A stretch of 26,372 bases of DNA, taken from assembly GCA_043776185.1 (NCBI GenBank), contig JAYVRS010000328.1:1-26372 (forward strand). Direction: 5' to 3'. This DNA comes from Bryobacteraceae bacterium (lineage in GTDB: Bacteria > Acidobacteriota > Terriglobia > Bryobacterales > Bryobacteraceae). Position numbers and translations under genes: made by a program. This document shows, one piece after another, positions 100 to 14,153 of the stretch. Below the pieces are notes generated by a model that was given only the letters and a program-made list of their open reading frames with translations, did no database searches and was not told the origin of the DNA. Numbering within the stretch: the stretch's first letter is position 1; the number at the start of each line of letters is the position of its first letter.

Positions 100-810
100 C
101 GACCAACGACAACTACACTCTTGGCAAAGCAGCGCGGGCTGCCTAAACTGGTGCTGACCGGAGCAGAGGGTAAGGCTCTGCAGGGATGCAACCGGAGCGC
201 TGACTCCGGGGCCAGACCAGGTTCGGGGTGGGGTTGACCTGCCCCGGGCCGGCCGCCTGGGATGGCAAGAAAGCGTTAAATCCCGGAGGTCTGGAGGCAG
301 AGCCTCCAGTTTCAGCAAAGCGTTCATTTCTTATTCGTCCTCCGCCTTTTTCTTCTTGGCCTGCTCCATGCGATAGCTGCCGATGTTGAGCTCCAGGATG
401 ACGCTGTGGTGGACGAGCCGGTCGATGGCCGAGGCGGTGGTCATCGGATCCTTGAAGATCACCTCCCATTTCGAGAACGGCAAGTTGGAGGTGATCAGGA
501 CGCTGCCCCGTTCGTAGCGTTCGGCGAGCAGCGTGAAGAGCACCTCCATTTCTTCGCGGCTCTGCTGCACGTAGCCGATGTCGTCGATCACCAACGCGTC
601 ATAGTAGGCCAGTTTCTTGATCGCCTGGCTCAACCGCAGATCCTTCTTGGCCCGCAGCAGATCCTGCACCAAGCGCACGCAAGTGCTGAAAGCCACTCGC
701 CGGCCTTGCCGGATCAGTTCTTGCCCCAACGCCGATAGCAGATGCGTCTTGCCGCTGCCGGGATTGCCAAAGGCCAGCACGTTCTCGCGCCGGTCCAGGC
801 AACTGGACTC
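100..810 (-). mobile_element. IS21-family insertion sequence remnant (3' part of istB plus downstream end region)
   Basis: Contains the istB fragment; no istA in the window. The left boundary is not securely located and may lie beyond the window edge. Confidence 0.55.
331..810 (-). pseudogene. istB: IS21-family helper ATPase IstB, 5'-truncated
   Basis: Walker A GNPGSGKT, Walker B LVIDDIGY, plus LITSNLPFSKW and AIDRLVHH. Similarity begins abruptly at about LDRRENV, so roughly the N-terminal 80-100 aa are missing. Confidence 0.9.
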
Positions 811-1025
811 ATGCCTGGCACCAATTGAGCTGCCCAATTGGGCTCCTCACCGCCACTTCTCCTTGGGTACCGTCTCCTTAGCAAGTGTTTGCGGACCATA
901 CAGGCAGTGTTTAGCACGGTTAGTTATTACGCTTTCGTTGCCCAAAATCCCGTCAGTGCATCTTTCTGGGATCTGTCACTTTTTCTACTCAATCTGCGCT
1001 TCTGTGTCTGAGGAGTAAGATTTTC

Positions 1026-3221
1026 GTGGCACATCCGTTTCTATTTACCCTGATCGCGGCAACTGGTTTAGCGCTCGCGCAGACCAAGCCGCCGGCACCC
1101 GTCTTGATGGGGGAGCCGATTCCGAGAGGCAAATTAATCACCGTACGCATTTCCGGCTTGGCGGACCAAGTGGCGGTGAAAATTTACCGGGACGGCACGG
1201 AGGACAAAGACTTGAAGGCGAGCCCCCCGATGATCTTCGGAGAAGTGGAACTCACCCTGAGCAAGGCGCTGAGCGCTGGGGAAATCGTGACTCTCACTCA
1301 GACGATCGGAGGGCTGGAAAGTCCCCCTTCGGCCGGCTATCGAGTTCCAGCAATTGCTCCCCCGTCCGTCGAAATTCTGTCCGCGCAAGCCTTCTTGGCG
1401 TACAACCTCGTTCCGGTAACCTTTAAGGTCAGCCACGCCGATACGGTGACGTTCAAGATCTTTGGCGGTCCGAACTGTTCCGAGCGACGGGTGACGCAGG
1501 AGGTGTCGGGCGACGAATTGAAGAAGGGGAAGGCTGATATTGCTTTGGCGGGCCCCTTAGATTCCAGCGAAAATTTGTGTTTGACGTATTTAGCTTCGCA
1601 TAAGGGAGCTCTCGATAAAGCGGGCGTATTCAAAGTAGATGTCATTGGGTTAGACTTCCGGTTGGACGGCCCACCCACCGAGGGTCAGCAAGAATTGAAA
1701 GGCAAAGCTGGGTCCTTCATTAAGGGGATGGTAGTGTACGTTTTAGGAGGAGCCTTTCCAGAATCCCGCATTCCGGCCAAAGAACTTAGCCCGACCTTGG
1801 ACAAGCTAAAGACAAACTTCAAGGCGCGTCTGAATATAGAGACCATTCAGCGCGGCCCCGCAACTTCCATTCCTCTCGGTATGTCGTATCTGCAGCTTAA
1901 GAGCCGGCTGAATGAGGTCACTGGGGACCTAAGAGAGGAAGATCCACCAAAACCGAAGAATCAAAAGAAGTCGCTACTTACGCCCAATCAAAAAAGCGAG
2001 GAAGAAAAAGACTATGCAGCGAACGACCTGCGCGACGAAATCTTCCATGACTCCGCCTCGATTGAAAAGGGAGCATTCACGTTTACGCTGAAGCAACGGC
2101 TGGAGGCCGGGCAGCGTTTGGTGATTTGCGCCCTGGTGGAGAATGAACCCGGGTTGAGTCGGCCTTTTTGCGACGAACGGAATCACGTGGTCCAGTCCGT
2201 CGCCATCGATTTCGGTCGTTTGCGCGCCTATTTTTCCGCGGGCACCGTGATTAGTGCCCAAGACGGATCGTTTGGCAAAGCCGCCCCGTACCTTGCGTTC
2301 AATGCTGATTTTGCTTTTGCGAACGCTCTCATTTCGAAGATAGAAAAAAAATCTCTTCCGCTGGTGGCGGGTGATGCTAAACCTGCGGTCGATTCCTGCG
2401 AAGCCCTCGATTGCCTCAAGAATAGGCGTTTTGGCTTCTCTCTGCACGCATTTCTCGACGTCCGTCTGACTCAGGCGGCGACCGATAGCAAGGCGGCGAC
2501 GCCGTTGACTGCCGTAGCGGTTGGCCCCACTCCGCAGCAGGCCGGAGTGGCTCAGATGGGATTCTACTTACCCATGCGGGTCTCGGGAATGGACTGGGTC
2601 TATCGCGGCACCCAGTATTCCGCTTATTTCGCGCCAGTGGGAAAGTTTGGCATTACTCATTTGAAGGATGGCGTCATCCTGAACAGCCAAGACGTGACTA
2701 CGAAGACCACCGTGCAGGATCTGCTGCGGCCCGATGCGGCAGCCAAGGTGACGAACAGCGATCCGGCCACCAAATCGAACGCCACGCAGAACGCCTTACC
2801 TTTTTACGGCTATGGGTTGCGGTTAGGACTGATGCGATACGAACTGATGGGGAGGACGCTAAAGAATCGCCAGATCGCTCCGGACAATTCCGCTTACGTC
2901 GATTTCACTTATGGGCAAAACGGCATTTACCGTCGCAAAGTGGAAGATGCGGCTGTCCAATCGCTTCCGCGGATCACGACCGACAATATGCTCAGGACGA
3001 CGGTTCAGACCACATCGACCAATACTTCCCACCTTCTGGTTCCCGGCTTTAATATCGAGGGCCGGATGAAGCTTCCTTACCTGCCGGCCCAAATCGGCGT
3101 GGATATCTTCTTACATCGGCGGCTGCCAGACCAGAGTGCCTCGTCGGACTTTCGCTTTATTCTGGGCTTCCGTGTGGATGTGGCGAAGGCGCTCAGCCGG
3201 GCGTTTGGCATGGCACCCTAG
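1026..3221 (+). CDS. Large exported protein (731 aa): signal peptide, Ig-like domains, C-terminal beta-strand-rich (beta-barrel-like) region
   Basis: Long ORF, GAGGAG RBS before a GTG start, N-terminal hydrophobic stretch ending ALA-Q. The motif LSKALSAGEIVTL recurs as LKQRLEAGQRLVI. The C-terminal half has alternating hydrophobic strands (AYFSAGTVI, FYGYGLRLGL, FRFILGFRVDV). Confidence 0.8.
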   Translation: MAHPFLFTLIAATGLALAQTKPPAPVLMGEPIPRGKLITVRISGLADQVAVKIYRDGTEDKDLKASPPMIFGEVELTLSKALSAGEIVTLTQTIGGLESPPSAGYRVPAIAPPSVEILSAQAFLAYNLVPVTFKVSHADTVTFKIFGGPNCSERRVTQEVSGDELKKGKADIALAGPLDSSENLCLTYLASHKGALDKAGVFKVDVIGLDFRLDGPPTEGQQELKGKAGSFIKGMVVYVLGGAFPESRIPAKELSPTLDKLKTNFKARLNIETIQRGPATSIPLGMSYLQLKSRLNEVTGDLREEDPPKPKNQKKSLLTPNQKSEEEKDYAANDLRDEIFHDSASIEKGAFTFTLKQRLEAGQRLVICALVENEPGLSRPFCDERNHVVQSVAIDFGRLRAYFSAGTVISAQDGSFGKAAPYLAFNADFAFANALISKIEKKSLPLVAGDAKPAVDSCEALDCLKNRRFGFSLHAFLDVRLTQAATDSKAATPLTAVAVGPTPQQAGVAQMGFYLPMRVSGMDWVYRGTQYSAYFAPVGKFGITHLKDGVILNSQDVTTKTTVQDLLRPDAAAKVTNSDPATKSNATQNALPFYGYGLRLGLMRYELMGRTLKNRQIAPDNSAYVDFTYGQNGIYRRKVEDAAVQSLPRITTDNMLRTTVQTTSTNTSHLLVPGFNIEGRMKLPYLPAQIGVDIFLHRRLPDQSASSDFRFILGFRVDVAKALSRAFGMAP

Positions 3222-3239
3222 TGTTCTGATTGTAAAGCA

Positions 3240-3497
3240 CTAGTAGCCCAGCTTCGCTTCCACGCAGTGCAGCAGCGTGCGGACGCAGTACACCACGAGG
3301 AGCGCTTCGGGCGCTGCGAGGAGGACTTCGTTGGGGGGGGGCGACGCTGGCGCGGTTGCGGATCGGGTTGAGGACGGAGACGATGGCGGTGAGGGAGTTT
3401 GGGGGGGCGAGAGGTCCTCGGCCCTGGCTCCTTTGGCTTGGAACTGGGGGTGCTTTTCGCGGAGGATTTTAAAGGGGCGGGTGAGATCCGGGGGCAA
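3240..3497 (-). CDS. Small hypothetical ORF or gene remnant with Pro/Ser linker
   Basis: Protein-like C-terminus (NEVLLAAPEALLVVYCVRTLLHCVEAKLGY), but only a weak TTG start; contains G9 and G7 tracts. Confidence 0.3.
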   Translation of the reverse strand: MPPDLTRPFKILREKHPQFQAKGARAEDLSPPQTPSPPSSPSSTRSATAPASPPPNEVLLAAPEALLVVYCVRTLLHCVEAKLGY

Positions 3498-3567
3498 GTC
3501 AGCGTATCCACGCGTGTCCCTGGTTTCGCTCCAACTTTTTCCAATTAAATGACTTATCGCCGCCGAG

Positions 3568-3594
3568 ATGCGGTGGAATGACCTTCCACCGCAT
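3568..3594. terminator. Perfect 11-bp hairpin
   Basis: ATGCGGTGGAA-TGACC-TTCCACCGCAT, immediately after the TAA of a small minus-strand ORF (3595-3711). No strong U-tract. Confidence 0.4.
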
Positions 3595-3900: not shown

Positions 3901-4812
3901 TTATCGGCGGGCGTTGGCAAGCCGCGCCTGGAATCTTTCGGTGAGCTTAGCCTCCAATCCTGTTGGATCCTCCCAAAAGAGATGCTGGTATTGGCGAACA
4001 TCGAACGAGAGAACTGGTCCTGGGCCCTCTTCCGTCCGGCATGTCCAAAATATCGGTTTGCCAAGCGCCTCGGCAAACCCTGCCTCATAGTAGACGTTTG
4101 GCCGATGGGAGGTTACGTCGACAACGACAAACTGAGAGCGTCGAATGTCTGCCATGACACGGTCGCAGATTTTTTCAGGAAAATGCTGCCGGTCCACGCG
4201 GATGGCCTGGAAACCACAGAACTGAATGGCACGGCTAATCGCCGCATAGGCGTCATCCAGTTCGGGGGCAAAACTCATGGCGATGAAGCCGACGCCAGTC
4301 CCGCCGGAGATCGGTTCGAGGGCGATCCAGGCCTTTGGCGTTAGGCGAAACCCTGTCGGCTGGCCTGGGACGCCTTGGTGTAATTCAACCAAGCCTTCCG
4401 ACATTAGGCCATCAAGAATGCCGCTAACTTCCTCGGCGCTTCGCGCCTGTAGTTCAGCCCAGCAAGTATTAAAGTCCCAACGCACGTGTGCGCCAACAAA
4501 CTTAGAATGCTTCTCCATGAACTCCAGAAGCGTGTGACGTTTTGTGGAGTAGGAAATGCTCTGGTATGCCTGGATCAATTGATCTATGTTCGTCGTATCG
4601 ATATGGAATCGCTGACCAGTTGCTAACTGAGCTTGCGCAGACGCGATAGAAAGGCACCATCTTCGGTCGACGTAGTTTTGTTCGCGGAGTAGATCTTGGG
4701 CTTCCTCTGGTAGGGTGAATTTCTTGCAGGCTTTGCATTCGTACCAGAAAGTCTCAGTATCGCTGCGGTAGCCACCATCACAGGGTTCGCCGCACAGAGG
4801 ACAATTGGGCAT
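3901..4812 (-). CDS. Zn-finger + winged-helix-like + nucleoside 2-deoxyribosyltransferase-like (TIR-like fold) protein, 303 aa
   Basis: CPLC...ECKAC at the N-terminus, a helical middle ending GFRLTPKAW, then FIAMSF...DIRRSQFVVVDVTSHRPNVYYEAGFAEALGKP...FDVRQY. Start moved to ATG 4812 because protein-like sequence begins there. Confidence 0.8.
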   Translation of the reverse strand: MPNCPLCGEPCDGGYRSDTETFWYECKACKKFTLPEEAQDLLREQNYVDRRWCLSIASAQAQLATGQRFHIDTTNIDQLIQAYQSISYSTKRHTLLEFMEKHSKFVGAHVRWDFNTCWAELQARSAEEVSGILDGLMSEGLVELHQGVPGQPTGFRLTPKAWIALEPISGGTGVGFIAMSFAPELDDAYAAISRAIQFCGFQAIRVDRQHFPEKICDRVMADIRRSQFVVVDVTSHRPNVYYEAGFAEALGKPIFWTCRTEEGPGPVLSFDVRQYQHLFWEDPTGLEAKLTERFQARLANARR

Positions 4813-5108
4813 AATCGATTCTAGCGAAATTCGGCTGATAATGCGTGTTGTGTTTCTCGAGTACCGGAATAGAAGTGTGGCTAGACGCTCGGAACCTCCA
4901 CGGCTAAAAGCCCTAGGCAGAGCAATATGTACTGTTCTTGAGAGCCTGGTGTGTAACTTTATTGGCACGTGCTCGGCTTTGTGCAGCGGGCACATAGGTA
5001 ACACTCTAGCCCATCGCGTCAGGGGTGGCGAATGGACTCCAGTTGTACCGACGGTTGCGAATGTTTCGGACGAACAACTGGGGTCCGAAGCGTTAAAATT
5101 TACAGAAT

Positions 5109-6104
5109 TCAGGCCCGCGCCAAGATTCGCCTTCCGCGGGGCAATGGATTTGATTTGTGCCGGAAGCGCCTGGACGCGAGGGGGGGAATGGCCAGCAGAT
5201 CCAGAACTTGCTCCGCGGACGAAGGTCGCAGCGAAGGGTTATCGGAAATCGCCGCTTGGATCGTCGTTAACCAAGATCGGGGCAGGCCGCCGTTGAGGTT
5301 GCAAGGGGCACCCGCCACCATTTCGTTTAGCAGCACTCCCAGTGCGTAGATATCGGTTAGCTCAGTGACCGGCTGACCCTTCAACTGTTCCGGTGCCATA
5401 TAGCCGCGCGTCCCCATGACTCGGCTGAGGCCCGGCGCGCGACGATCGGCTAGTCCGAAATCCATGATGACGGCGCGGCTGGGCGTCAGCATGACGTTTG
5501 ACGGCGTTAGATCCAGATGCACGATACCCATTCGATGAATGGCGGTGAGTCCACGAACTAACTGCTCGACGATGGTTTGCGCTTCAGTTAGGCGAAGGGG
5601 GCCCGTGCGGCGCAGGCGGGCAGCCAAGGATTCACCCTCCACTAATTCCATGGTTAAAAAGGCCACGCCGGTATGGCGGCCGATGTCGAAGAGCCGGCAG
5701 ACATTGGGGTGAGTGACTTGACGCCCGATCTGTAATTCGCGGCGAAAGTTCCCTAGCAAATCCGTATGCATTACTTTAAGCGCAATGGTGCTCTCCGCTT
5801 CGTGATCGAAAGCGGCATAGACCTCGCCCATACCGCCTGCTCCAATTATCTGTAAGATTTGGTACCGGCCAGCGAGACAATCGCCCGGCATGAAACGCGC
5901 CTCGGGCGGTGAGTGTAATTTCTTTACCGCATCCGGTGCGTCTTCGAGAAATTCGCCGGCGTCCTGATCTTGCCGGAGTAACTGCTCCACGTCGGCGGCA
6001 AGGTCCGCTTCGACGCCGGCTAACAGAACGGCGCGGCATTCAGAAGGTTGACTGCGGCACAGTTCAAATAGCTCGAGAATGCGCACCCAACGCTCCGCGG
6101 TCAT
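5109..6104 (-). CDS. ECF-associated Hanks-type Ser/Thr kinase, kinase domain only (no TM or sensor tail)
   Basis: GAGGMGEV, IALK, HLDLTPSN, DFG, GYMAPE, DIYALG. N-terminal extension (ERWVRILELF...VEQLL) typical of kinases paired with TIGR02999-type ECFs. ATGA overlap with the ECF gene. Confidence 0.9.
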   Translation of the reverse strand: MTAERWVRILELFELCRSQPSECRAVLLAGVEADLAADVEQLLRQDQDAGEFLEDAPDAVKKLHSPPEARFMPGDCLAGRYQILQIIGAGGMGEVYAAFDHEAESTIALKVMHTDLLGNFRRELQIGRQVTHPNVCRLFDIGRHTGVAFLTMELVEGESLAARLRRTGPLRLTEAQTIVEQLVRGLTAIHRMGIVHLDLTPSNVMLTPSRAVIMDFGLADRRAPGLSRVMGTRGYMAPEQLKGQPVTELTDIYALGVLLNEMVAGAPCNLNGGLPRSWLTTIQAAISDNPSLRPSSAEQVLDLLAIPPLASRRFRHKSNPLPRGRRILARA

Positions 6105-6721
6105 GTCAGTTCACCGTAGAGCCAGGCCTTGGCGATGGTCCAATCGCGTTTGATGGTACGCGAACAGACTGCTAAGTGGATAGCAACCTCGTCTTCCGTC
6201 ATTCCGCCAAAGAAACGCAATTCTACGACCAATGCTTGGCGCGGGGCGAAAAGGGCGAGCCGGTCCAGCGCCTCATCGAGATTCTGGATTAGTTCACATT
6301 CTCCATCGCCAGCCAATTGGAGATTCTCCAAGTTCAGCTCGATCTGGCCCGCGCCGCGCTTGAGAGCCCGACGCTGGCGCGCATGATCCGTCAAGATGCG
6401 ACGCATGACGGTGGCGGCCATAGCAAAGAAATGCGAACGGTCTTGCCAGTGCGGGGTCTGTTGGCCAGCCAATTTGAGGTAGGCTTCGTGGACGAGGGCC
6501 GTCGGTTGCAAGGTATGGTCCGGCCGCTCGCGGCGAAGGAATCCAGCGGCCAGTCGTTTGAGCTCGGCATAGACACTCGGCACCAGTTCAGCCTCGGCGG
6601 ACTTATCGCCCGCCGCCAAGCGACGTAACAGACTGGTAATTTCGCGTTCCTGATCTAAGCAGTCAGAAATGGCGGGTAGATAGCCAATCGGAGAACGATC
6701 CTCGTCGGCGCGGCGCTTCAT
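6101..6721 (-). CDS. ECF sigma factor, kinase-associated type (TIGR02999 / EcfP-like)
   Basis: EITSLLRRLAAGD, LQPTALVHEAYLKL, WQDRSHFFA, LDEALDRL, VVELRFFGG. GAGGAGG RBS; translationally coupled to the kinase. Confidence 0.93.
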   Translation of the reverse strand: MKRRADEDRSPIGYLPAISDCLDQEREITSLLRRLAAGDKSAEAELVPSVYAELKRLAAGFLRRERPDHTLQPTALVHEAYLKLAGQQTPHWQDRSHFFAMAATVMRRILTDHARQRRALKRGAGQIELNLENLQLAGDGECELIQNLDEALDRLALFAPRQALVVELRFFGGMTEDEVAIHLAVCSRTIKRDWTIAKAWLYGELT

Positions 6722-6809
6722 GACTTATCCTCCTCGATGAGCTTGGTTTGCTTACCAGAAGAAGACGTATCTCATACAGATTTCCCTTTTCGGAGTTACT
6801 CGAACTTAC

Positions 6810-7724
6810 TTACACCATGATCTGGCCGGGCAAGCCAAGGTCAGCGAGGGCCTTGGCCAGGGGCGAGACGACTACGAAATGCGCGACGTTAGTACCGGTG
6901 ATCAGTCCGATGGGATGACCTGCGGCGTCAGCGGTGACGACGAGGCCGCCAGAATTCCCAGGCAGCGCGAATTGAGTGTCATCGGCCTGCACGAGAATAC
7001 TGCCATTGAACTCGACATCGTCCAGAGAGCAGGGAAAGTTGCTCGCGCCCATGGCGACGTGAAAAGTACCCACGCCCGTAACGGTACCGAATGCGTCAAC
7101 GCCGTTGACCGAAACTTTCACCCGCAGATTCACGGTGGGAGTGAACGGGTTCGGGTTAGGAGTCCAACCGGGAGGCCAGGCTGGAACGATTCCAGCGGCG
7201 GGATCGAGCAGGCAAGCCGCGGCGTCCGCTTGGTGGCCGTGAGGCTTTAGCTCGCTGAAAACGATCGTCCGGCTCACCCGCTTGGTACCCAAGTACACGC
7301 CATGGGACGGGTCGGCTAGCGGTAAATGCCGGCCATTGCAGGCCAGGACGTGATTCGCCGAGAGGAGCCAGACGCCGTCCGCATTCCGCGCAAAGGCCCC
7401 GATCGACCCAGGAATTTCACCTTGAGCGCCGCGAACCGAAACCGGCGAACCCATCCTGCCAGCGGGTGAGCCGGCCGCCGCCACAAGGGCTAAAGGCGCA
7501 GCCGGACTCGGCACGGCGGAGAAACGGCACATCGGTACGCGGTGAATCCGCACCGGAAGCAGTCCCAGCGCATCGAAGCCACTGAGAAAACCCACGAAGC
7601 CGGGTGGAAGATAGATCGTCAAATCCCAATGGCCGCCCTCTTGGGTGAGCGAATAGCCCACCCGATTCGATAGCTGGTGCATAATCGGACGAATCCGCTC
7701 AATCAGCTCTTGGTAATCCATCAT
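6810..7724 (-). CDS. Trypsin-fold serine protease with N-terminal pro-region (Nal1-like architecture)
   Basis: Triad candidates LSANHV (His), ADAA (Asp) and PGNSGG (Ser). No signal peptide. Start could be 7724 or 7754. Confidence 0.82.
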   Translation of the reverse strand: MMDYQELIERIRPIMHQLSNRVGYSLTQEGGHWDLTIYLPPGFVGFLSGFDALGLLPVRIHRVPMCRFSAVPSPAAPLALVAAAGSPAGRMGSPVSVRGAQGEIPGSIGAFARNADGVWLLSANHVLACNGRHLPLADPSHGVYLGTKRVSRTIVFSELKPHGHQADAAACLLDPAAGIVPAWPPGWTPNPNPFTPTVNLRVKVSVNGVDAFGTVTGVGTFHVAMGASNFPCSLDDVEFNGSILVQADDTQFALPGNSGGLVVTADAAGHPIGLITGTNVAHFVVVSPLAKALADLGLPGQIMV

Positions 7725-7729
7725 GGCAT

Positions 7730-8626
7730 CTAGGGAGTAAACGACCCGTTGCATGCGGAGCAGCAGGATTTGCAGCCCTCGCCATTGAGGGGCTGGGAGC
7801 TGGAGAAACGAGCTGTCCTCGCGAAATCCACCAGATGGTCCACCAGTTTCGGCCGGCTCTTGAGCGAGCTTAGCTCCAGCGCCGACAGACCAGGAGGCAA
7901 GTCCGGTTGCATCGCCAGATCTTTCGGCGGGCCAGCTAACTGAACTGTCGTCTGGCCGAAGAGGCTAGTCGACAGCGCGAATTCATCTTGCGAATGGCTG
8001 GCGCTCACCGCTTGGTCAGGTGGCGAGTCAATCAGATGAAGGGTAGCCACCTTGGCATGGTTGGGGAACTCCGTGAACGACGAACTCTGCCAGTAGCTCT
8101 GAAGTCCGTCCGGTGAAGTGAGCTCAATGAAATCAAAAGAAGTGGTCACCGCGTATTCGAATACGGTGAGGCCACAAACCTTGGTGGCTGGCGCGATGAG
8201 CTTGGCCGGATTGGTGACGACGGCGTCGCCCAGGCGCAGGTAATGAATCTTTCGCGGGCGCGGCAGAGCGAGGCTAGCCCAGATACGCTCGTCCTTGGCA
8301 TCGGGCAGCGCCGTCACCAGAATGGTGGGCGTGAGGGTAGGGTCGAGTGAATTGGCGGCCGTCTTTGGTGACGTACTAACACCGCGCAAAGTGGCGCTGA
8401 AGCCGCGCGGCACGTCGGTTTCGAGCAGCCAATTGCCGAGCCGGTATTGGTGGTCGCCACCGATGTTGAGGGCGTACGCGTGGAACTCGTCGCCGGGACC
8501 TTCGACCAGCGAGACCAGCCCGTGAAAGGCCACGTAAAAGCGATTGTCCGCCGGTGGCGCGGGGATGGATAGGTCGACGAAAAAGTCGCCATTTTTGTCG
8601 CGAAGTTGGATGATTGTTTCGGCCAT
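7730..8626 (-). CDS. Unknown protein (298 aa), paralog B, Cys-rich C-terminal tail GEGCKSCCSAC
   Basis: Long ORF with AAGGAG RBS; colinear motif identity with 8684..9544. Confidence 0.85.
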   Translation of the reverse strand: MAETIIQLRDKNGDFFVDLSIPAPPADNRFYVAFHGLVSLVEGPGDEFHAYALNIGGDHQYRLGNWLLETDVPRGFSATLRGVSTSPKTAANSLDPTLTPTILVTALPDAKDERIWASLALPRPRKIHYLRLGDAVVTNPAKLIAPATKVCGLTVFEYAVTTSFDFIELTSPDGLQSYWQSSSFTEFPNHAKVATLHLIDSPPDQAVSASHSQDEFALSTSLFGQTTVQLAGPPKDLAMQPDLPPGLSALELSSLKSRPKLVDHLVDFARTARFSSSQPLNGEGCKSCCSACNGSFTP

Positions 8627-8683
8627 TGTGTATCTCCTTGTAAGGGCTCAGGAGTAAGGACGCCTAAGCCCGCACAATCCCTT

Positions 8684-9544
8684 TTAGCCTTCGCTACCGT
8701 CGGCCCCGGAGCAACAAGATTCGCACCCGCCGCCGCTTTTGGCGCGGTAGGTGGAGCTGGCGCTTGTCCCTCCACGCGCCTTATTGGCCAATGACTCCAG
8801 AAATTGCTCGCGCTTGTAGAGAGAGAGTAACTCGGCAGCACAGAGGCCGGGGGGCGGAGTGGAAGGCTTGCCATCCACGGTTTTAGTGCCAATCTTTACG
8901 GCCCGCTCGCCCAGCACCCGGGCGGATAGGTTGAACTCCGCCAATGAATGATTGTCGCTGGTCTCCAGCGGAGGGTTGCTGAAGACGTGTAGGGCGGCAA
9001 TAACGTAGTCGTCGCCCTTGACAGTGACCATGGTGCGCGAGTTCGGCTCCCACAAAATCGAACCGCTTTCGCTCACCAGGTAGCAGCCCGCAAAAGAATT
9101 TAGATTGTAACGGAACACGGTCACGCCGGCATTGAGGCCGACGTGTGGATCGACCAAACATCGGTGACCGTCGCTTAGATTCAGGGCACCGGAATTCCCG
9201 TAGTTTATGTCATCCGGACGCGGAAGCACGATGCGCGCATGAATCGCTTTCTGCGCTTCATCGACCGGTTTCTTCAACTCAATCGTGGGCCGCTTGGAGG
9301 CATCCAGTGCCGCGTTACGGGTGGTCGGGCCAGCCCCAACAACCAACTCGCCGGCGAATCCGGCGAGAATGCCGGCTTCGCGCAACCAGTCGCCATAGAG
9401 ATAGCGATGCTCGTCGCCCATCGACAGAACGTACGCCCGAAATTCATGAGTCGTAGTGTTTTCCACGATCGGCGTGAGACCGTGAAAGACGACATAGACG
9501 ATATTCTTAGTTTTGGCTGGTGACTTTTTCTTAGCCATATCCAT
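8684..9544 (-). CDS. Unknown protein (286 aa), paralog A, Cys-rich C-terminal tail GGGCESCCS
   Basis: Long ORF with AAGGA RBS, 19 nt downstream of the CHAT gene stop; colinear motif identity with 7730..8626. Start 9544 or 9538. Confidence 0.85.
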   Translation of the reverse strand: MDMAKKKSPAKTKNIVYVVFHGLTPIVENTTTHEFRAYVLSMGDEHRYLYGDWLREAGILAGFAGELVVGAGPTTRNAALDASKRPTIELKKPVDEAQKAIHARIVLPRPDDINYGNSGALNLSDGHRCLVDPHVGLNAGVTVFRYNLNSFAGCYLVSESGSILWEPNSRTMVTVKGDDYVIAALHVFSNPPLETSDNHSLAEFNLSARVLGERAVKIGTKTVDGKPSTPPPGLCAAELLSLYKREQFLESLANKARGGTSASSTYRAKSGGGCESCCSGADGSEG

Positions 9545-9563
9545 AGTTTCCTTTCAACACAAA

Positions 9564-12467
9564 TTAAGGCAACCCAAACAACTGAAAGGCCGCCCAAAAA
9601 TAGGGGTGGTGCTGGAGCGGATCCCGCTCGACCGCGAGCGCGGCTTCGCGTAAGGCGGCGGCCGGCGCCATACCTTGCTGCAACCGATCATAAAAACGCT
9701 CCATCATCTGCGCCGTGGCGCGGGAGTCGACATTCCAGCGCGAGGCCAATACCTGGCTCGTCCCGGCGTCCAAAAAGGCTTGCACGAGGCTTTCGACATT
9801 GACGGAGCCGCCATCCTCGCCGGCGCCGGACGAACACGCGGCCAGGGTGGCCAGGCGCAGCGCATGCAGGTCGAGATCGGCGATCTCGGCGGCCGTGATC
9901 AACCGGGTGCCCACCCGCGGTTCGCCGGCCAGAACTAAGGCGCCATTGCCACCGTTAGCCACACCGTGCCCGGCGAAGTGAAAGAGGCGATGGCGAGTGA
10001 GCTGCTGCTGAAGTGCCTCCACGTGCGCGCCCGCTCCAGAGAGGTAAAGATGTTGGGGAAATAGGTGGCGGAGATGTTCCGCTTCGGCTAAGCCGGCGCT
10101 GAGTACGGGGAAGCGTGGACGGTCGCGTGGGTCGACGGCCGGCTCGGCTACTACCAGGGCCGGTTGCCAGTCGAGCGGCACGTCGAGCGACGGACGCGAG
10201 ACCGGCGCTGAGCCCCAGCCAATAGTTTGGACGACGGCGACGCGCGATAGCAACGCGCGTCCCTCACGGTCTCGCAGTGCGCCCCAAGGCAGGACGGCCA
10301 GCGGACCGTCAGGATCCACAATGAGCGTGCGGGCTCCGCCAAAACGCGATTCGAAAGGCAAGATCAGGAGATCGTACAGTTCGCGGCCGCTCTGGTTCAC
10401 CACCGCCAGCGGCGAACCGGAATTAGCGACCAGGGCGGCAAAGCGTTGCGCCAAGCGCGTGAGTTGCGGCTGCGTAATTCGATGCAGGGCCAGGCCTTGG
10501 GCGTCGGCCCACCAGACCACCGGCCCTGAGGGAAGCAGCGCCACGGCTAGCCAGACCTCGCCGGGCGGCGGCGAAAGCCGAATCGGCTGTCCCGGATTGG
10601 CCAGCGTGCGGAAGGTCTGCCACGTGCGCAGCGCCGCGGTGGGCCCTTCCGTATCGAGCTGTGCTTCGGTCAACAAACGCCAAGCTGGACCGATCTCTAG
10701 AGCGGTGGCGTGCCGTTGACGACGGCCGCGCAGCGCGTTCACGATCGCCACCGTCTCCTCCACCAACACGCGATAGTGACGCAACGCTTCCGGGCGATTG
10801 CCTTGCTGCCAGAACGCCCGGCCCATCATGGGCAGCAACATAATGCGGCTGTCGTGATCCAACTTTCGATAAGGGAACTCCGCGCCGTTGGTCACCCGCC
10901 GTAAACGAACCAAGGCCTGGTCGGCGTGCCCGGCGACAATATCCGTCGAGGCTGATTCAATCTCGTTGGTAGTTTCGCCGGGCAGTTTGGCGCTGGGATC
11001 GAGCCGGAAAAAGTCGGAGCGGATGGCGGCTCGAAGCCACTGATTTGGATGGCCCTCCATGACGGCCATCGACTCACGGAAGAGCAGCGCCGCCAGACGG
11101 GAATAGCCGAACGACTCGGCCATCATGCCCAACGGACTATAGAAATTAGTGGCGAAAGGCGCCGGCAGCACGCTGCGCCAATAGGCGGCCAACCCGCGAT
11201 GCGCCAGCTCCCAGGACTCCACCGGCGCCGTGAAGGCGTGGAAAGGCTCCACCAAAGCGCTGGTGGCGCGCAGTTCGAGATCTAAGAAGCCGCTGCCCTC
11301 GATGCGGGCCAGCAGATTTTCACTCTCCGTCAACATGTCGATCACCCGCTGGCGCGACTTGCAGGCGGCCGATTCCTGCTGAGCCCGGAGGTCCACCCAG
11401 CGATAACCGCCGGCCAAGCCGATCTGACGAGACCTTTCGGCGAGCGGCCGGCATTCCGCACTGCGACCGCTGCGGCGAAGGGCGTAACTGGCTTGCACGC
11501 CTGAGACCGCTTGTCCGGCGGCATTCCCAGCGCGAGCGTAAAGTAGGCCCGCCTGAATGCCCGCTTCGGCGGCGGTGGAGTAATCTCCGGCAGCATTCGA
11601 CAGCGAAGCACGGCCCAGGGCTTGGTCGGCCACGATGTTGGTTGGTGCCGTCAACAGATCCTGCAGCACCGGGTCAGCTAACTCAGTACGAAAGTACAAA
11701 GCCAGCCGGCTCAGGTCGGCGCTGAATTCTGTCCGCCGGGGCAGCCATTCGGAGAGCGCGAGTTGCAGGAGCAGTTCGGCGGAGCCTGGGATGTCCCGGG
11801 CTGGCTCTCGCCGTGCCGCCACCCGCGCCACGCGGTCCCGGCGGCGGCGAGCCTCGCTTTCGGCAGCTTGGAGACGCTGGATGAAGGTGGCTTTCCGCGA
11901 ATCATTTACGCTGGCCGCTGCCTTCTTCCAGTAGTCGATCGCGACCTGGGGAGCCGGTAACTGAGCGCTCACCTCCGCCAGATTCGCGAAACCCAGGGCG
12001 GGGAATCCGGGCAGCTCCGAAGCTTCAATCAGCGCGTTGGCCGCTGTCGCCCAATCAATCGCCCGATTCTCCGCAGCGGCGCGAAGGCCCAGACTGACGC
12101 CATAAGCCATTTGAAGGTGGGCATCGTCAGAGTCCAGCAAAGTCGCCAAACGCATCAGCCGAACCGCTTCGGCATGGGCACCTCGAAGGGACGCGAGCCT
12201 GCCCCGCAGGTAGAATGAACGCGGCGTCGGCCCGAGGCGCGCGTCCGTCGATTCAAGGGCTCGGGCGACTTGCGCAAGTGCCGTAGCTTTGGCCGTATCG
12301 CTCAGCACGGGTGGGTCGGCGGATTGACCGGGCCAGTAGAGCGAGTTCGGCGCCGGGAAATTGTTTAAGGCACCTTCGGCGCGCGACAGCTGAAAGTGGG
12401 GCCAGCGCCACCAGCTGATCGCCGCGATCAGGGTGAGAGCCGGTGCGAGCCACCATCGTTTGCGCAT
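9564..12467 (-). CDS. TM/signal-anchored TPR + CHAT (caspase-family) protease, 967 aa
   Basis: N-terminal MRKRWW plus hydrophobic stretch, helical repeats, then CHAT motifs LIVDPDGPLAVLPW, HFAGHG (His at 9966-9968), LAACSSG (Cys at 9834-9836), ASRWNVDS and HPYFWAAF. Confidence 0.92.
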   Translation of the reverse strand: MRKRWWLAPALTLIAAISWWRWPHFQLSRAEGALNNFPAPNSLYWPGQSADPPVLSDTAKATALAQVARALESTDARLGPTPRSFYLRGRLASLRGAHAEAVRLMRLATLLDSDDAHLQMAYGVSLGLRAAAENRAIDWATAANALIEASELPGFPALGFANLAEVSAQLPAPQVAIDYWKKAAASVNDSRKATFIQRLQAAESEARRRRDRVARVAARREPARDIPGSAELLLQLALSEWLPRRTEFSADLSRLALYFRTELADPVLQDLLTAPTNIVADQALGRASLSNAAGDYSTAAEAGIQAGLLYARAGNAAGQAVSGVQASYALRRSGRSAECRPLAERSRQIGLAGGYRWVDLRAQQESAACKSRQRVIDMLTESENLLARIEGSGFLDLELRATSALVEPFHAFTAPVESWELAHRGLAAYWRSVLPAPFATNFYSPLGMMAESFGYSRLAALLFRESMAVMEGHPNQWLRAAIRSDFFRLDPSAKLPGETTNEIESASTDIVAGHADQALVRLRRVTNGAEFPYRKLDHDSRIMLLPMMGRAFWQQGNRPEALRHYRVLVEETVAIVNALRGRRQRHATALEIGPAWRLLTEAQLDTEGPTAALRTWQTFRTLANPGQPIRLSPPPGEVWLAVALLPSGPVVWWADAQGLALHRITQPQLTRLAQRFAALVANSGSPLAVVNQSGRELYDLLILPFESRFGGARTLIVDPDGPLAVLPWGALRDREGRALLSRVAVVQTIGWGSAPVSRPSLDVPLDWQPALVVAEPAVDPRDRPRFPVLSAGLAEAEHLRHLFPQHLYLSGAGAHVEALQQQLTRHRLFHFAGHGVANGGNGALVLAGEPRVGTRLITAAEIADLDLHALRLATLAACSSGAGEDGGSVNVESLVQAFLDAGTSQVLASRWNVDSRATAQMMERFYDRLQQGMAPAAALREAALAVERDPLQHHPYFWAAFQLFGLP

Positions 12468-12474
12468 CGGGTCT

Positions 12475-13374
12475 TCAATGAATCGCTTTGATCCGGTCGC
12501 GAACTTCGCTAGACCAGAGCCGGTCGCCTTCCGATCCTTGGCGAACCCTCAGCAGAGTACGCCAATCCCGACCGGCTTCTTGACCTTGTCCGAGCCGCGC
12601 GTAGGTCAGGCCGCGATTGTATAAGGCCGCCGGGTCGACCGGGCGTTGGGCCAACACTCGGGAAAACTGTGCGAGGGCCCGAGCATAGTCATCGGCGGCA
12701 CCGCCTTCGGCCCTGGCGGCGTAGGCTACGCCTAACAGGCCGGCCACGTCGAGGTCGTTGGGTGCCGACCGGCGCGCCGCTTCCAGGGTCTGTACTGCGG
12801 CATCTACCTTGTGTTCGAGCAATTCGCTCCAAGCCCGCAGACGCATCAATTCAACGCCACTCTCGCCCGCAGCCGACCGTTTCGCGAGTTCCGCTTGTGC
12901 CTCCAAAAGTGCGGCCGGTACAGGCTGATCGGAGCCTCTCTGGGCTTGGGTACGCCCATAGTCGGCGTGAGGCAATCGCCAATCGAAGGGGCGGGCAGTG
13001 GCGGAAGCCTGCGCGAGCAAGCCCGGCACGGGGTCACGCCGGCTAGCCAGGTACCAGGATCCGGCAGCGATGATCACGAGGGCGGCGGCGGCGATACTCC
13101 ACAGGTGCGGCCACTTAGGACGGGTTCGGCTATTCCGGCGAACGGGCCGGGACGGCGGCTGCCGAAGAACCTGCCCGATTAACTCCCGTTCGGTAGGCGA
13201 CAGTTCATGTTCCAGGTCGCGAATGGTTTGGCGTAAAGCCTGGCCGCACACGTCGCACGCAGAGACATGCGCCAAACGAACCTGTGTCTCATCGGCCGGT
13301 AACAGGTCCTCGGCGATTTCAGTAAGCTCCCAAGAAGAGAGGCAGCCAGGTTTCGAAGTGCTCGACGTATTCAT
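12475..13374 (-). CDS. Anti-sigma-like protein: zf-HC2 domain, one TM helix, TPR domain
   Basis: HVSACDVC (HxxxCxxC), TM WSIAAAALVIIAAGSWYL, TPR-like AALYNRGLTYARLG. ATGA overlap with the upstream ECF. Confidence 0.88.
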   Translation of the reverse strand: MNTSSTSKPGCLSSWELTEIAEDLLPADETQVRLAHVSACDVCGQALRQTIRDLEHELSPTERELIGQVLRQPPSRPVRRNSRTRPKWPHLWSIAAAALVIIAAGSWYLASRRDPVPGLLAQASATARPFDWRLPHADYGRTQAQRGSDQPVPAALLEAQAELAKRSAAGESGVELMRLRAWSELLEHKVDAAVQTLEAARRSAPNDLDVAGLLGVAYAARAEGGAADDYARALAQFSRVLAQRPVDPAALYNRGLTYARLGQGQEAGRDWRTLLRVRQGSEGDRLWSSEVRDRIKAIH

Positions 13375-14153
13375 TCCTCTCCCTTAGTAGGACGTGGCGA
13401 CTCGCCAAAACCCTTTTGCTCCGCGGGAGCCAACTCAGCCCGCAAAGTTGCGGTTAGGCGGTAAAGCAGGCTTTCCACCCCCTTCACGGTGAGCCCAACA
13501 GCGGGCAAAGCCGCGATCTCTTTGGCCGTAAAGCCTTGGCGATAATAGAGCCAGAAGACGTTGCGATCCCGCATATGTGATTCTGGCCCGCAGGCCGCCG
13601 CCAATAACCCATCGATCCGCTCAAAGAGCATTTTCCGGTGAAGTTCCGATTCGGCCGGTTCCGCGAGGGCCAGATCATGCTGGAGCACGTCGAGCGAAAC
13701 CGCCTTGCGCGCATCTTTTATCGGATTCCGGAGCGTGCGCAAGTGATCGACGGTGGTGGAATAGGCCACCGCCCGCACCAACGCGTACACGCCGTTGGGA
13801 TGGTCGGAACGCAGGTGGCGCAGGATTTTGCCGTTGTTCGCGCAGAGCTTGAGGTAGACATCCTGCACCAGGTCCTCCACCATGGCGCGGCTGGGTCCAC
13901 TGGAGGTGGATAGGGTGCGAACGACGGTGCTCACAATAAGCTCGTGAAAACGCGCGAGAAAACCATCCCAAGCTTCGATTTTTCCAGCTTGCGAGGAAGC
14001 CAACAAAGTTTTGAATTCATCCGGCGGCAGAACATAAATATAGCACCGGCGACGAGCCAAGGCGGTGGACGTGGGGTCACATTTCTTGGGATTGCTAGCG
14101 AGCGCGAGGTGATGGTCCACACGGGCATGGTCTGGAGAAAACGGATCATTCAC
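13371..14153 (-). CDS. ECF sigma-70 factor (start uncertain)
   Basis: Region 2: AWDGFLARF...VEDLVQDVYLKL...AYSTTVDHLR. Region 4: FWLYYRQGFTAKEIA...VKGVESLLYR. Confidence 0.88.
   Translation of the reverse strand: MNDPFSPDHARVDHHLALASNPKKCDPTSTALARRRCYIYVLPPDEFKTLLASSQAGKIEAWDGFLARFHELIVSTVVRTLSTSSGPSRAMVEDLVQDVYLKLCANNGKILRHLRSDHPNGVYALVRAVAYSTTVDHLRTLRNPIKDARKAVSLDVLQHDLALAEPAESELHRKMLFERIDGLLAAACGPESHMRDRNVFWLYYRQGFTAKEIAALPAVGLTVKGVESLLYRLTATLRAELAPAEQKGFGESPRPTKGEE

Follow-up and report, generated by a model that had tools for sequence, protein, structure and literature searches.

What is the role of a protein family that has no recognisable relatives, ends in a short cysteine-bearing tail and is encoded between two protease genes? 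The question is raised by contig JAYVRS010000328.1, a stretch of 26,372 nucleotides (the window, taken throughout at its full length) from an uncultivated, Bryobacterales-related acidobacterium of sediment origin. Its minus strand carries a run of genes in the order sigma1 (an extracytoplasmic function (ECF)-like sigma factor), anti-sigma, TPR-CHAT protease, paralog A, paralog B, a further protease, a second ECF sigma factor (ECF2) and a kinase. A sequence-only reading of this DNA had singled out A and B as tandem paralogs whose shared GCxSCCS tail is a selected functional unit, and had favoured a role as protease substrates. Here we describe the family to which the two proteins belong, in which a single cysteine near the C-terminus is preserved in nearly all full-length members, and the conserved cassette in which it is encoded. 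It is likely that the Cys-tail protein serves, in the cytoplasm, as the working part of a cassette for envelope-to-gene signalling.

The two paralogs share 34% identity over about 290 residues (BLASTP, E 1e-40), far above chance, and are end-to-end relatives as first proposed, with open reading frames (ORFs) at the positions assigned to them. Translation of these ORFs likewise confirms the tails, GEGCKSCCSAC in B (residues 282-292; 7751-7783) and GGGCESCCS in A (residues 271-279; 8708-8734). Both carry a CxSCC motif, the extra cysteines of A being residues 274 and 277, just before Cys278. The blocks that had been aligned by eye (FHGL, HxYxxGxW, LPRP, VFxY, LH, HSxxEF and PPGL..E) are real and contain residues that are near-invariant throughout the family, all of which are retained in both copies present in this genome.

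A word-indexed search returned only 20 relatives, every one with a CxSCC-type tail. An exhaustive profile search over 1.84 billion representatives, with clusters at 50% identity, enlarged the family to 332 clusters at E <= 1e-3, or 160 at E <= 1e-10. The statement that no known family could be recognised has held up under these wider searches: A and B have no match in Pfam, NCBIfam (none at E <= 1) or PADLOC, no Pfam domain was found in 74 diverse family members, and ten family clusters that were looked up are all named only 'hypothetical protein'. Of 400 other genomes sampled across the phylum, none yielded a family member; we take the family to be rare or patchy there and do not claim its absence. 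A tblastn search of plasmids and phages gave no family match, and a literature search found DdvA, a known system considered below, and nothing on the Cys-tail family.

Conservation was counted over 144 full-length members at 22-35% identity (residue numbers are those of paralog B, P0001). Near-invariant residues are H35, G36, H59, G64, E69, P122, P124, Y158, W179, H197, H211, F216, E251, R258 and C289, with H35, H59, E69, Y158, W179, H197, H211, E251 and R258 each at least 86% conserved. At such low identity, a conserved set of His, Glu, Tyr, Trp and Arg is the mark of a catalytic or metal-binding site rather than of a passive substrate. The tail cysteine is present in 142 of the 144 proteins, and in 86 of these 142 it lies 8-9 residues from the C-terminus. 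It is preceded by a Gly-rich stretch at positions -8 to -4 and by V or C at -1, and is followed by G/S/A, G/A and A, then by N/D/H at +4, G/A at +5, any residue at +6 and a hydrophobic residue at +7, after which one or two more residues lead to the stop. Across the family, R258 and this cysteine are 12 to 81 residues apart (median 30), and the segment between them is 19% Gly.

In a maximum-likelihood tree, CxxCC tails form one clade (Shimodaira-Hasegawa-like approximate likelihood ratio test, SH-aLRT, 99), which comprises clades A and B together with a third group; a tail with one cysteine is the widespread condition, and a second elaboration, CxxxxCxxC, lies near the base of the sister clade. 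Because CxxCC forms one clade and the single cysteine is widespread, GCxSCCS is, to go by the tree, an embellishment, confined to one lineage, of a single-Cys motif that runs through the whole family, and A and B are on the same showing old paralogs that inherited the CxxCC tail. That the tail is selected is thus borne out by one cysteine kept in 142 of 144 diverse homologs, while the unit under selection has to be redrawn: it is the single cysteine in a GGxGGxxVCGGANGxV-type motif, and GCxSCCS was derived in one clade. Extra cysteines cluster at the invariant one in two geometries, CxxCC and CxxxxCxxC, which is what a thiolate ligand or a redox site would lead one to expect.

Structure prediction changed with the depth of the alignment. 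With 20 close sequences, AlphaFold2 modelled the linker and tail poorly, at a predicted local distance difference test score (pLDDT) of 45-69. With 74 diverse sequences, the mean pLDDT of paralog B was 93.9 and its predicted template modelling score (pTM) 0.93, with residues 281-290 at pLDDT 84, residues 291-298 at 95 and a strand at 293-295. Given this high tail pLDDT and the terminal strand, the Cys tail is predicted to pack onto the beta-rich body rather than to float. The flexible linker proposed earlier is therefore retained only in part, since the segment is indeed variable in length and Gly-rich, whereas the last 18 residues are modelled at pLDDT 84-95. Mutual information with average product correction, computed over the 144 sequences for tail-body contacts, held only noise and subfamily signal, and a complex prediction of the protease with paralog B scored 0.00, a value that counts neither for nor against binding.

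No fold match to the Cys-tail protein was obtained with Foldseek against the PDB, including a re-check of the top 1000 matches, or in searches of AlphaFold DB Swiss-Prot and, by features as well as by structure, of the ESM Atlas, and a search of the AFDB clusters returned uncharacterised relatives only. A profile search of PDB sequences with the Cys-tail family also gave no match. The modelled protein thus has no recognisable fold, and such a total lack of weak matches is unusual and perhaps partly technical, and is no proof of a new fold. Neither A nor B has a signal peptide, as had been noted from the sequence, and the same is true of 170 family members, in which no N-terminal hydrophobic segment was found apart from the first core strand. 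Among other origins considered for the tail, a C-terminal sorting signal (MYXO-CTERM, PEP-CTERM and similar) was rejected, only 8-9 residues following the cysteine and no signal peptide being present; thioester or intein-like autoprocessing, a ranthipeptide CxxxD cross-link and a methanobactin-like core were rejected because the required partner genes or motif geometry are missing.

The gene neighbourhood of the family is as constant as its tail. A locus search with a narrow alignment found only five loci, all from Bryobacterales metagenome-assembled genomes (MAGs). In all, 15 independent metagenome and MAG loci, which together cover the family tree from end to end, were annotated by means of profiles of the window proteins. 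In each of the 15 the family gene is immediately preceded by a CHAT gene, and in each of the 14 that reach that far it is immediately followed by a protease gene, which usually overlaps the stop codon of the family gene (by 25 nt in the case of B), so that the linkage to both kinds of protease envisaged in the sequence-only reading is upheld. The downstream protease is of the trypsin fold in 13 of the 14 and papain-like in the remaining one (L004). Provided that the contig extends far enough, homologs of the sigma and anti-sigma genes stand 5' of the CHAT gene; L020, with its permuted order, is the exception. Sigma1 homologs lead the cassette in 11 of the 13 loci that include sigma, the others being L009, which is cut at a contig edge, and L020, in which sigma lies downstream of the protease gene. 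Anti-sigma and TPR-CHAT are two separate genes in 15/15 loci.

Variations on this plan were seen in individual loci. The window, L014 and L015 have both A and B with a single protease. In L010, a distant locus, the pair of family gene and protease gene is duplicated as a unit (5986-9778), the first pair sharing a transcript with the CHAT gene and the other lying behind an ECF-type promoter motif, the same two-tier wiring as is described below for A and B. The deep-branching L020 has a second trypsin-like gene upstream of the CHAT gene (2533-3585) and keeps the core of CHAT, Cys-tail and protease genes.

The partner protease itself has a His-Asp-Ser triad, in that order, of H135, D177 and S268, which are invariant in its family. 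Some members of that family match Trypsin, Trypsin_2, Nal1_C or Peptidase_S64 in Pfam; the window copy has no Pfam match. A profile of the family matches solved chains of plant NAL1 at E 5.6e-6, making NAL1 the closest solved relative, and by triad and profile the partner gene qualifies as a trypsin-fold (clan PA) serine protease. The profile match and the H/D/S triad are shared with NAL1 and Peptidase S64 (Ssy5), from which the partner protease differs in being a distant bacterial branch. No export signal was found in the protease N-termini inspected. In L004 (11086-11610) a papain-like Peptidase_C70 gene of the AvrRpt2 type (27.2 bits against a cut-off of 19, with a weak Peptidase_C39 match at E 0.0017, below cut-off) takes the place of the trypsin-like protease beside a single-Cys family member whose tail motif is unchanged. 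This exchange of catalytic class, with the gene position kept, fits a requirement for any endopeptidase that cuts the tether between body and tail. In the same locus, a 218-aa protein without family assignment is encoded 3' of the Peptidase_C70 gene.

The genes upstream of the Cys-tail family suggest that a membrane lies between it and the CHAT protease. The dyad motifs of TPR-CHAT are intact (HFAGHG, 830-835; AACSSG, 876-881), and all cassette CHAT proteins have an N-terminal basic stretch followed by one hydrophobic, transmembrane (TM) helix. By the positive-inside rule, the basic stretch ahead of the helix predicts that the TPR-CHAT part lies outside the cytoplasm, in the periplasm. With CHAT anchored in this manner and no export signal in the Cys-tail proteins, the two are most likely separated by the membrane, which argues against the Cys-tail protein as a CHAT substrate and points to the cytoplasmic trypsin-like protease as its partner.

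This arrangement has a published counterpart in DdvA/DdvS. The TPR-CHAT catalytic domain of DdvA has been solved as periplasmic, and the model proposed for it requires a cytosolic protease for the last step. The cassette resembles that system in its ECF-like sigma factor (for which the Pfam signal is weak), in its HxxxCxxC anti-sigma with one TM helix and in its predicted periplasmic TPR-CHAT with a His/Cys dyad. It differs in that anti-sigma and TPR-CHAT, fused in DdvA, are here separate membrane proteins; in the presence of both a Cys-tail protein and a cytoplasmic trypsin-like partner, neither of which is described in the DdvA paper; and in the targets, the DdvS regulon consisting of CBASS/CRISPR, whereas the motif of the cassette stands before the paralog B/protease and ECF2/kinase genes. 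Gene content and domain order thus mark the triad of sigma, anti-sigma and TPR-CHAT as a split variant of DdvA/DdvS.

Promoter motifs suggest how the cassette may be wired. A pattern of the ECF type (AAGGGAWW, 13 nt, CGTCYT) matches the window twice, where chance alone would give 0.12 matches. Copy 1 falls within the 57 nt separating A from B, some 30 nt ahead of the start codon of B, and the motif recurs 45-110 nt 5' of the family gene in nine other loci, distant ones among them (L001, L002, L004, L009, L010 for its second copy, L014 and L015 for B, L016 and L018). No such motif was found before any A-type copy or before the family gene in L011 and L019-L021; in these cases the family gene begins 8-36 nt past the CHAT stop or, in L010, overlaps it. 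Paralog A is probably co-transcribed with the sensor genes, since its start codon lies 19 nt past the CHAT stop with no promoter motif ahead of it. Because the motif precedes B and not A, the paralogs are, as far as promoter motifs can tell, wired differently. A terminator scan between the window genes found no convincing terminator.

The sensor genes appear to answer to another factor. No ECF-type motif was found before the first sigma gene; the Bryobacterales loci instead have a conserved TGnTATAnT element, resembling an extended -10, which in the window falls at 14033-14047 on the minus strand, inside the sigma1 ORF. That ORF, listed as 260 aa, is probably over-extended at its 5' end, the real gene starting downstream and encoding about 200 aa. 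The sensor operon looks dependent on the housekeeping sigma factor and not autoregulated. The sensor genes and paralog A would then be transcribed constitutively, and B with its protease, as well as ECF2 with its kinase, would be driven by the sigma factor of the cassette. Copy 2 of the motif stands before the ECF2/kinase pair, an accessory found in Bryobacterales versions of the cassette only, and the arrangement suggests a sigma cascade in which sigma1 is followed by ECF2 gated by phosphorylation. Elsewhere a motif copy is located 3' of the protease gene (L010, L019 and L021), in L019 ahead of an 874-aa gene and patatin genes.

The reading of these data that we tentatively prefer, at a probability of roughly 0.35, is that the Cys-tail protein is a latent cytoplasmic enzyme or metal protein whose Cys tail caps or ligates a His-rich site and is freed when the partner protease cuts the tether. 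It would consist of a beta-rich body, on which four His, two or three Glu, Tyr, Trp and Arg make up a conserved polar site, of a variable Gly-rich tether and of the short tail. At rest, the tail would be folded back as the terminal strand, with the invariant cysteine in or on the His-rich site as ligand or cap, in the manner of a cysteine switch; the translationally coupled, NAL1-like protease of the cytoplasm would cut the exposed tether, free the site and switch the protein on. The two would form an obligate pair, the cytoplasmic arm of a split DdvA/DdvS-like switch, in which the membrane ZAS anti-sigma and the membrane-anchored periplasmic TPR-CHAT protease sense an external signal, and the released sigma factor fires the ECF-type promoter before B and the protease, and its second copy before ECF2 and the kinase, paralog A being made constitutively. 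The compartments, the docking of the tail (a prediction), the reading of the motif by the sigma factor, the cutting of the tether and the binding of metal are the elements of this scheme that we infer. We prefer it because it covers most of the features: the polar site, the tethered cysteine, the auxiliary cysteines, the swappable and co-duplicated protease, the cytoplasmic location and the sigma-type promoter.

Removable cysteine-bearing segments have precedents. Matrix metalloproteinases are zymogens held by a propeptide cysteine switch (PRCGxPD), and the large subunits of [NiFe]-hydrogenases undergo C-terminal processing by a dedicated endopeptidase. The Cys-tail protein is like these in having an invariant cysteine on a removable or mobile segment, here proposed to ligate a His-rich site, with a protease alongside; it is unlike them in that there is no homology, the segment is C-terminal, the protein is cytoplasmic and the metal site is putative. 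A bolder form of the preferred reading, to which we give rather little weight, sees in the protein a His-rich metalloenzyme of new fold, held latent in the cytoplasm by a cysteine switch at its C-terminus and unlocked by the dedicated NAL1-like protease, at the end of a trans-envelope cascade for defence or stress-triggered growth arrest. The order of that cascade would run from the periplasmic caspase-like CHAT protease through anti-sigma cleavage and sigma release to the protease/zymogen pair.

Several observations weigh against a protease-unlocked latent enzyme. The Cys-tail protein has no metal-binding motif of a known type, and a tail docked with such confidence in the model would equally fit a permanent active-site element. 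In L011 and L019-L021 the family and protease genes are simply co-transcribed with the sensor genes, which leaves the link between sigma release and the protease unexplained there, and the motif 3' of the protease in several loci suggests that the pair may belong to the signalling core and not to its output.

The most serious competitor, possible though somewhat less probable, is that the tail cysteine is a permanent catalytic, redox or metal-ligand residue, a 'swinging arm' thiol, and that the protease has another target. An invariant cysteine together with invariant His, Glu, Tyr and Arg would suit this well, as would the high-confidence docking of the tail in the AlphaFold2 model, the CxxC that auxiliary cysteines form beside the invariant one in two clades, and a tail motif that stays the same when the protease class changes. 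C-terminal cysteine arms are known from DsrC/TusE, from MerA with its C-terminal CC and from thioredoxin reductase (GCUG), and these likewise have a flexible C-terminal arm with one invariant cysteine and additional cysteines in some subfamilies. Their folds, however, are unrelated, and the cassette encodes no partner oxidoreductase, the obligate neighbour being a protease; that this protease is adjacent, translationally coupled, co-duplicated and exchangeable in class is what a permanent cysteine leaves unexplained. It is less likely again that the Cys-tail protein is an inhibitor, scaffold or adaptor of the cytoplasmic protease, and that the pair brings the release of sigma to completion, perhaps through destruction of the ZAS fragment left in the cytoplasm once intramembrane cleavage has taken place. 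The pair does lie within the conserved five-gene core, with the genes further downstream variable, overlapping genes are common for complexes, and the cytosolic protease called for by the DdvA model would be supplied. Four invariant His and one invariant Cys, however, are not called for in an adaptor or inhibitor, an inhibitor specific to one mechanism would not withstand a change from a serine to a cysteine protease, and the pair stands behind its own ECF-type promoter in 10 loci, as expected for an output.

The role favoured by the sequence-only reading, that of a dedicated substrate of the adjacent TPR-CHAT protease, as Csx30 or the bacterial gasdermins are of theirs, now appears very unlikely. 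Its attractions are the CHAT gene directly upstream in every locus, the intact CHAT dyad motifs and the N/D/H-Gly after the cysteine, which would suit the P1 preference of clan CD. The basic N-terminus and TM helix of all the CHAT proteins, however, predict a periplasmic catalytic domain, none of the 170 Cys-tail proteins has an export signal, and no sequence or fold similarity to Csx30 or gasdermins was detected. With the compartments predicted to differ, the credible proteolytic partner is the cytoplasmic trypsin-like protease; in particular, a profile search of PDB sequences and fold searches gave no homology between Csx30 of the type III-E Craspase and the Cys-tail protein, which by sequence inference is not in the CHAT compartment. 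We consider still less probable the release of the tail as a small Cys-containing peptide, either a signal or, as also suggested from the sequence, the core of a ribosomally synthesised and post-translationally modified peptide (RiPP) on an unusually large leader. The Gly-rich stretch before the cysteine recalls a double-glycine site, and the L004 protease has its weak Peptidase_C39 match, but none of the 15 loci has a conserved modifying enzyme or exporter, and the window contains a single radical SAM gene, which is of the RlmN type and about 10 kb away. Whereas a RiPP precursor has a short, unstructured leader, the 'leader' here would be a 270-aa folded domain (pTM 0.93) with invariant polar residues of its own and a tail that is predicted to be docked. 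Equally improbable is a gasdermin-like latent pore-former of new fold, held by a C-terminal peptide and released by the partner protease. Bacterial gasdermins (bGSDM) are proteins of about 250-300 aa with a neighbouring dedicated protease and a clippable C-terminal segment, and the Cys-tail protein, beta-rich, about 290 aa long and with a short C-terminal segment packed on its body beside a protease gene, has the same outline; it matches no gasdermin hidden Markov model or fold, its invariant His, Glu and Cys would be unexpected in a pore-former, and in place of a conserved N-terminal cysteine it has an invariant tail cysteine and a His cluster.

Because the family fails the gasdermin, Csx30, RiPP-precursor and sorting-signal tests and has no detectable homolog or fold match, it is, by these comparisons, a new protein family of putative function, and the cassette is a version of a known type of switch. 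If the cytoplasmic latent-enzyme reading is correct, a family without known relatives carries a sharp, chemistry-like signature of four His, Glu, Tyr and Arg with a tethered cysteine, and may bring to light an enzyme class, or a mechanism of latency, not seen before. Through the five-gene cassette, a cytoplasmic serine protease would be tied to a sigma/anti-sigma switch and to a caspase-like protease of the periplasm. The cassette would then be a second, genetically split version of the still unproven DdvA model, in which a caspase switches on a sigma factor; its cytoplasmic read-out would be defined and its promoter motif is conserved, which makes the pathway directly testable.

Table 1. Cassette genes, tail segments and promoter motifs in the window, in the order of transcription
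Feature	Position	Strand	Basis or remark
Sigma1, ECF-like sigma factor	13371-14153	-	Weak Sigma70_r4_2 match
Anti-sigma-like protein	12475-13374	-	N-terminal HxxxCxxC (ZAS) motif, one TM helix, C-terminal TPR region
TPR-CHAT protease, TM-anchored, 967 aa	9564-12467	-	Pfam CHAT, 2.5e-54
Paralog A, 286 aa, Cys-tail family	8684-9544	-	Clade A within the CxxCC clade
Paralog A tail, Cys278 (codon 8711-8713) to C-terminus	8687-8713	-	Family-invariant Cys
ECF-type promoter motif, copy 1	8657-8683	-	AAGGGATT, 13 nt, CGTCCT
Paralog B, 298 aa, Cys-tail family	7730-8626	-	AlphaFold2 pLDDT 93.9, pTM 0.93
Paralog B linker, residues 272-288	7763-7813	-	Gly/Ser-rich; pLDDT 81-84
Paralog B tail, predicted docked, Cys289 (codon 7760-7762) to C-terminus	7733-7762	-	Predicted strand 293-295
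Trypsin-fold serine protease (assigned by triad and profile), 314 aa	6810-7754	-	H135, D177, S268 triad; no signal peptide
ECF-type promoter motif, copy 2	6762-6788	-	5' of the second sigma gene
Second ECF sigma factor (ECF2), PF07638	6101-6721	-	Pfam
Cytoplasmic Ser/Thr kinase	5109-6104	-	Pairs with ECF2 (joint span 5109-6721)

Downstream of the kinase, the minus strand encodes a 367-aa protein (3901-5004) with N-terminal Cys pairs that resemble a zinc ribbon and a C-terminus that is weakly similar to nucleoside 2-deoxyribosyltransferases (E 3.8e-4); the gene is not kept in related cassettes. Its position, which in L019 is taken by the patatin-like phospholipase genes behind an ECF-type motif, hints at variable effector cargo. 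Near the start of the window, a fragment of an IstB-like IS21 ATPase gene (331-837, minus strand) indicates that a mobile element flanks the region.

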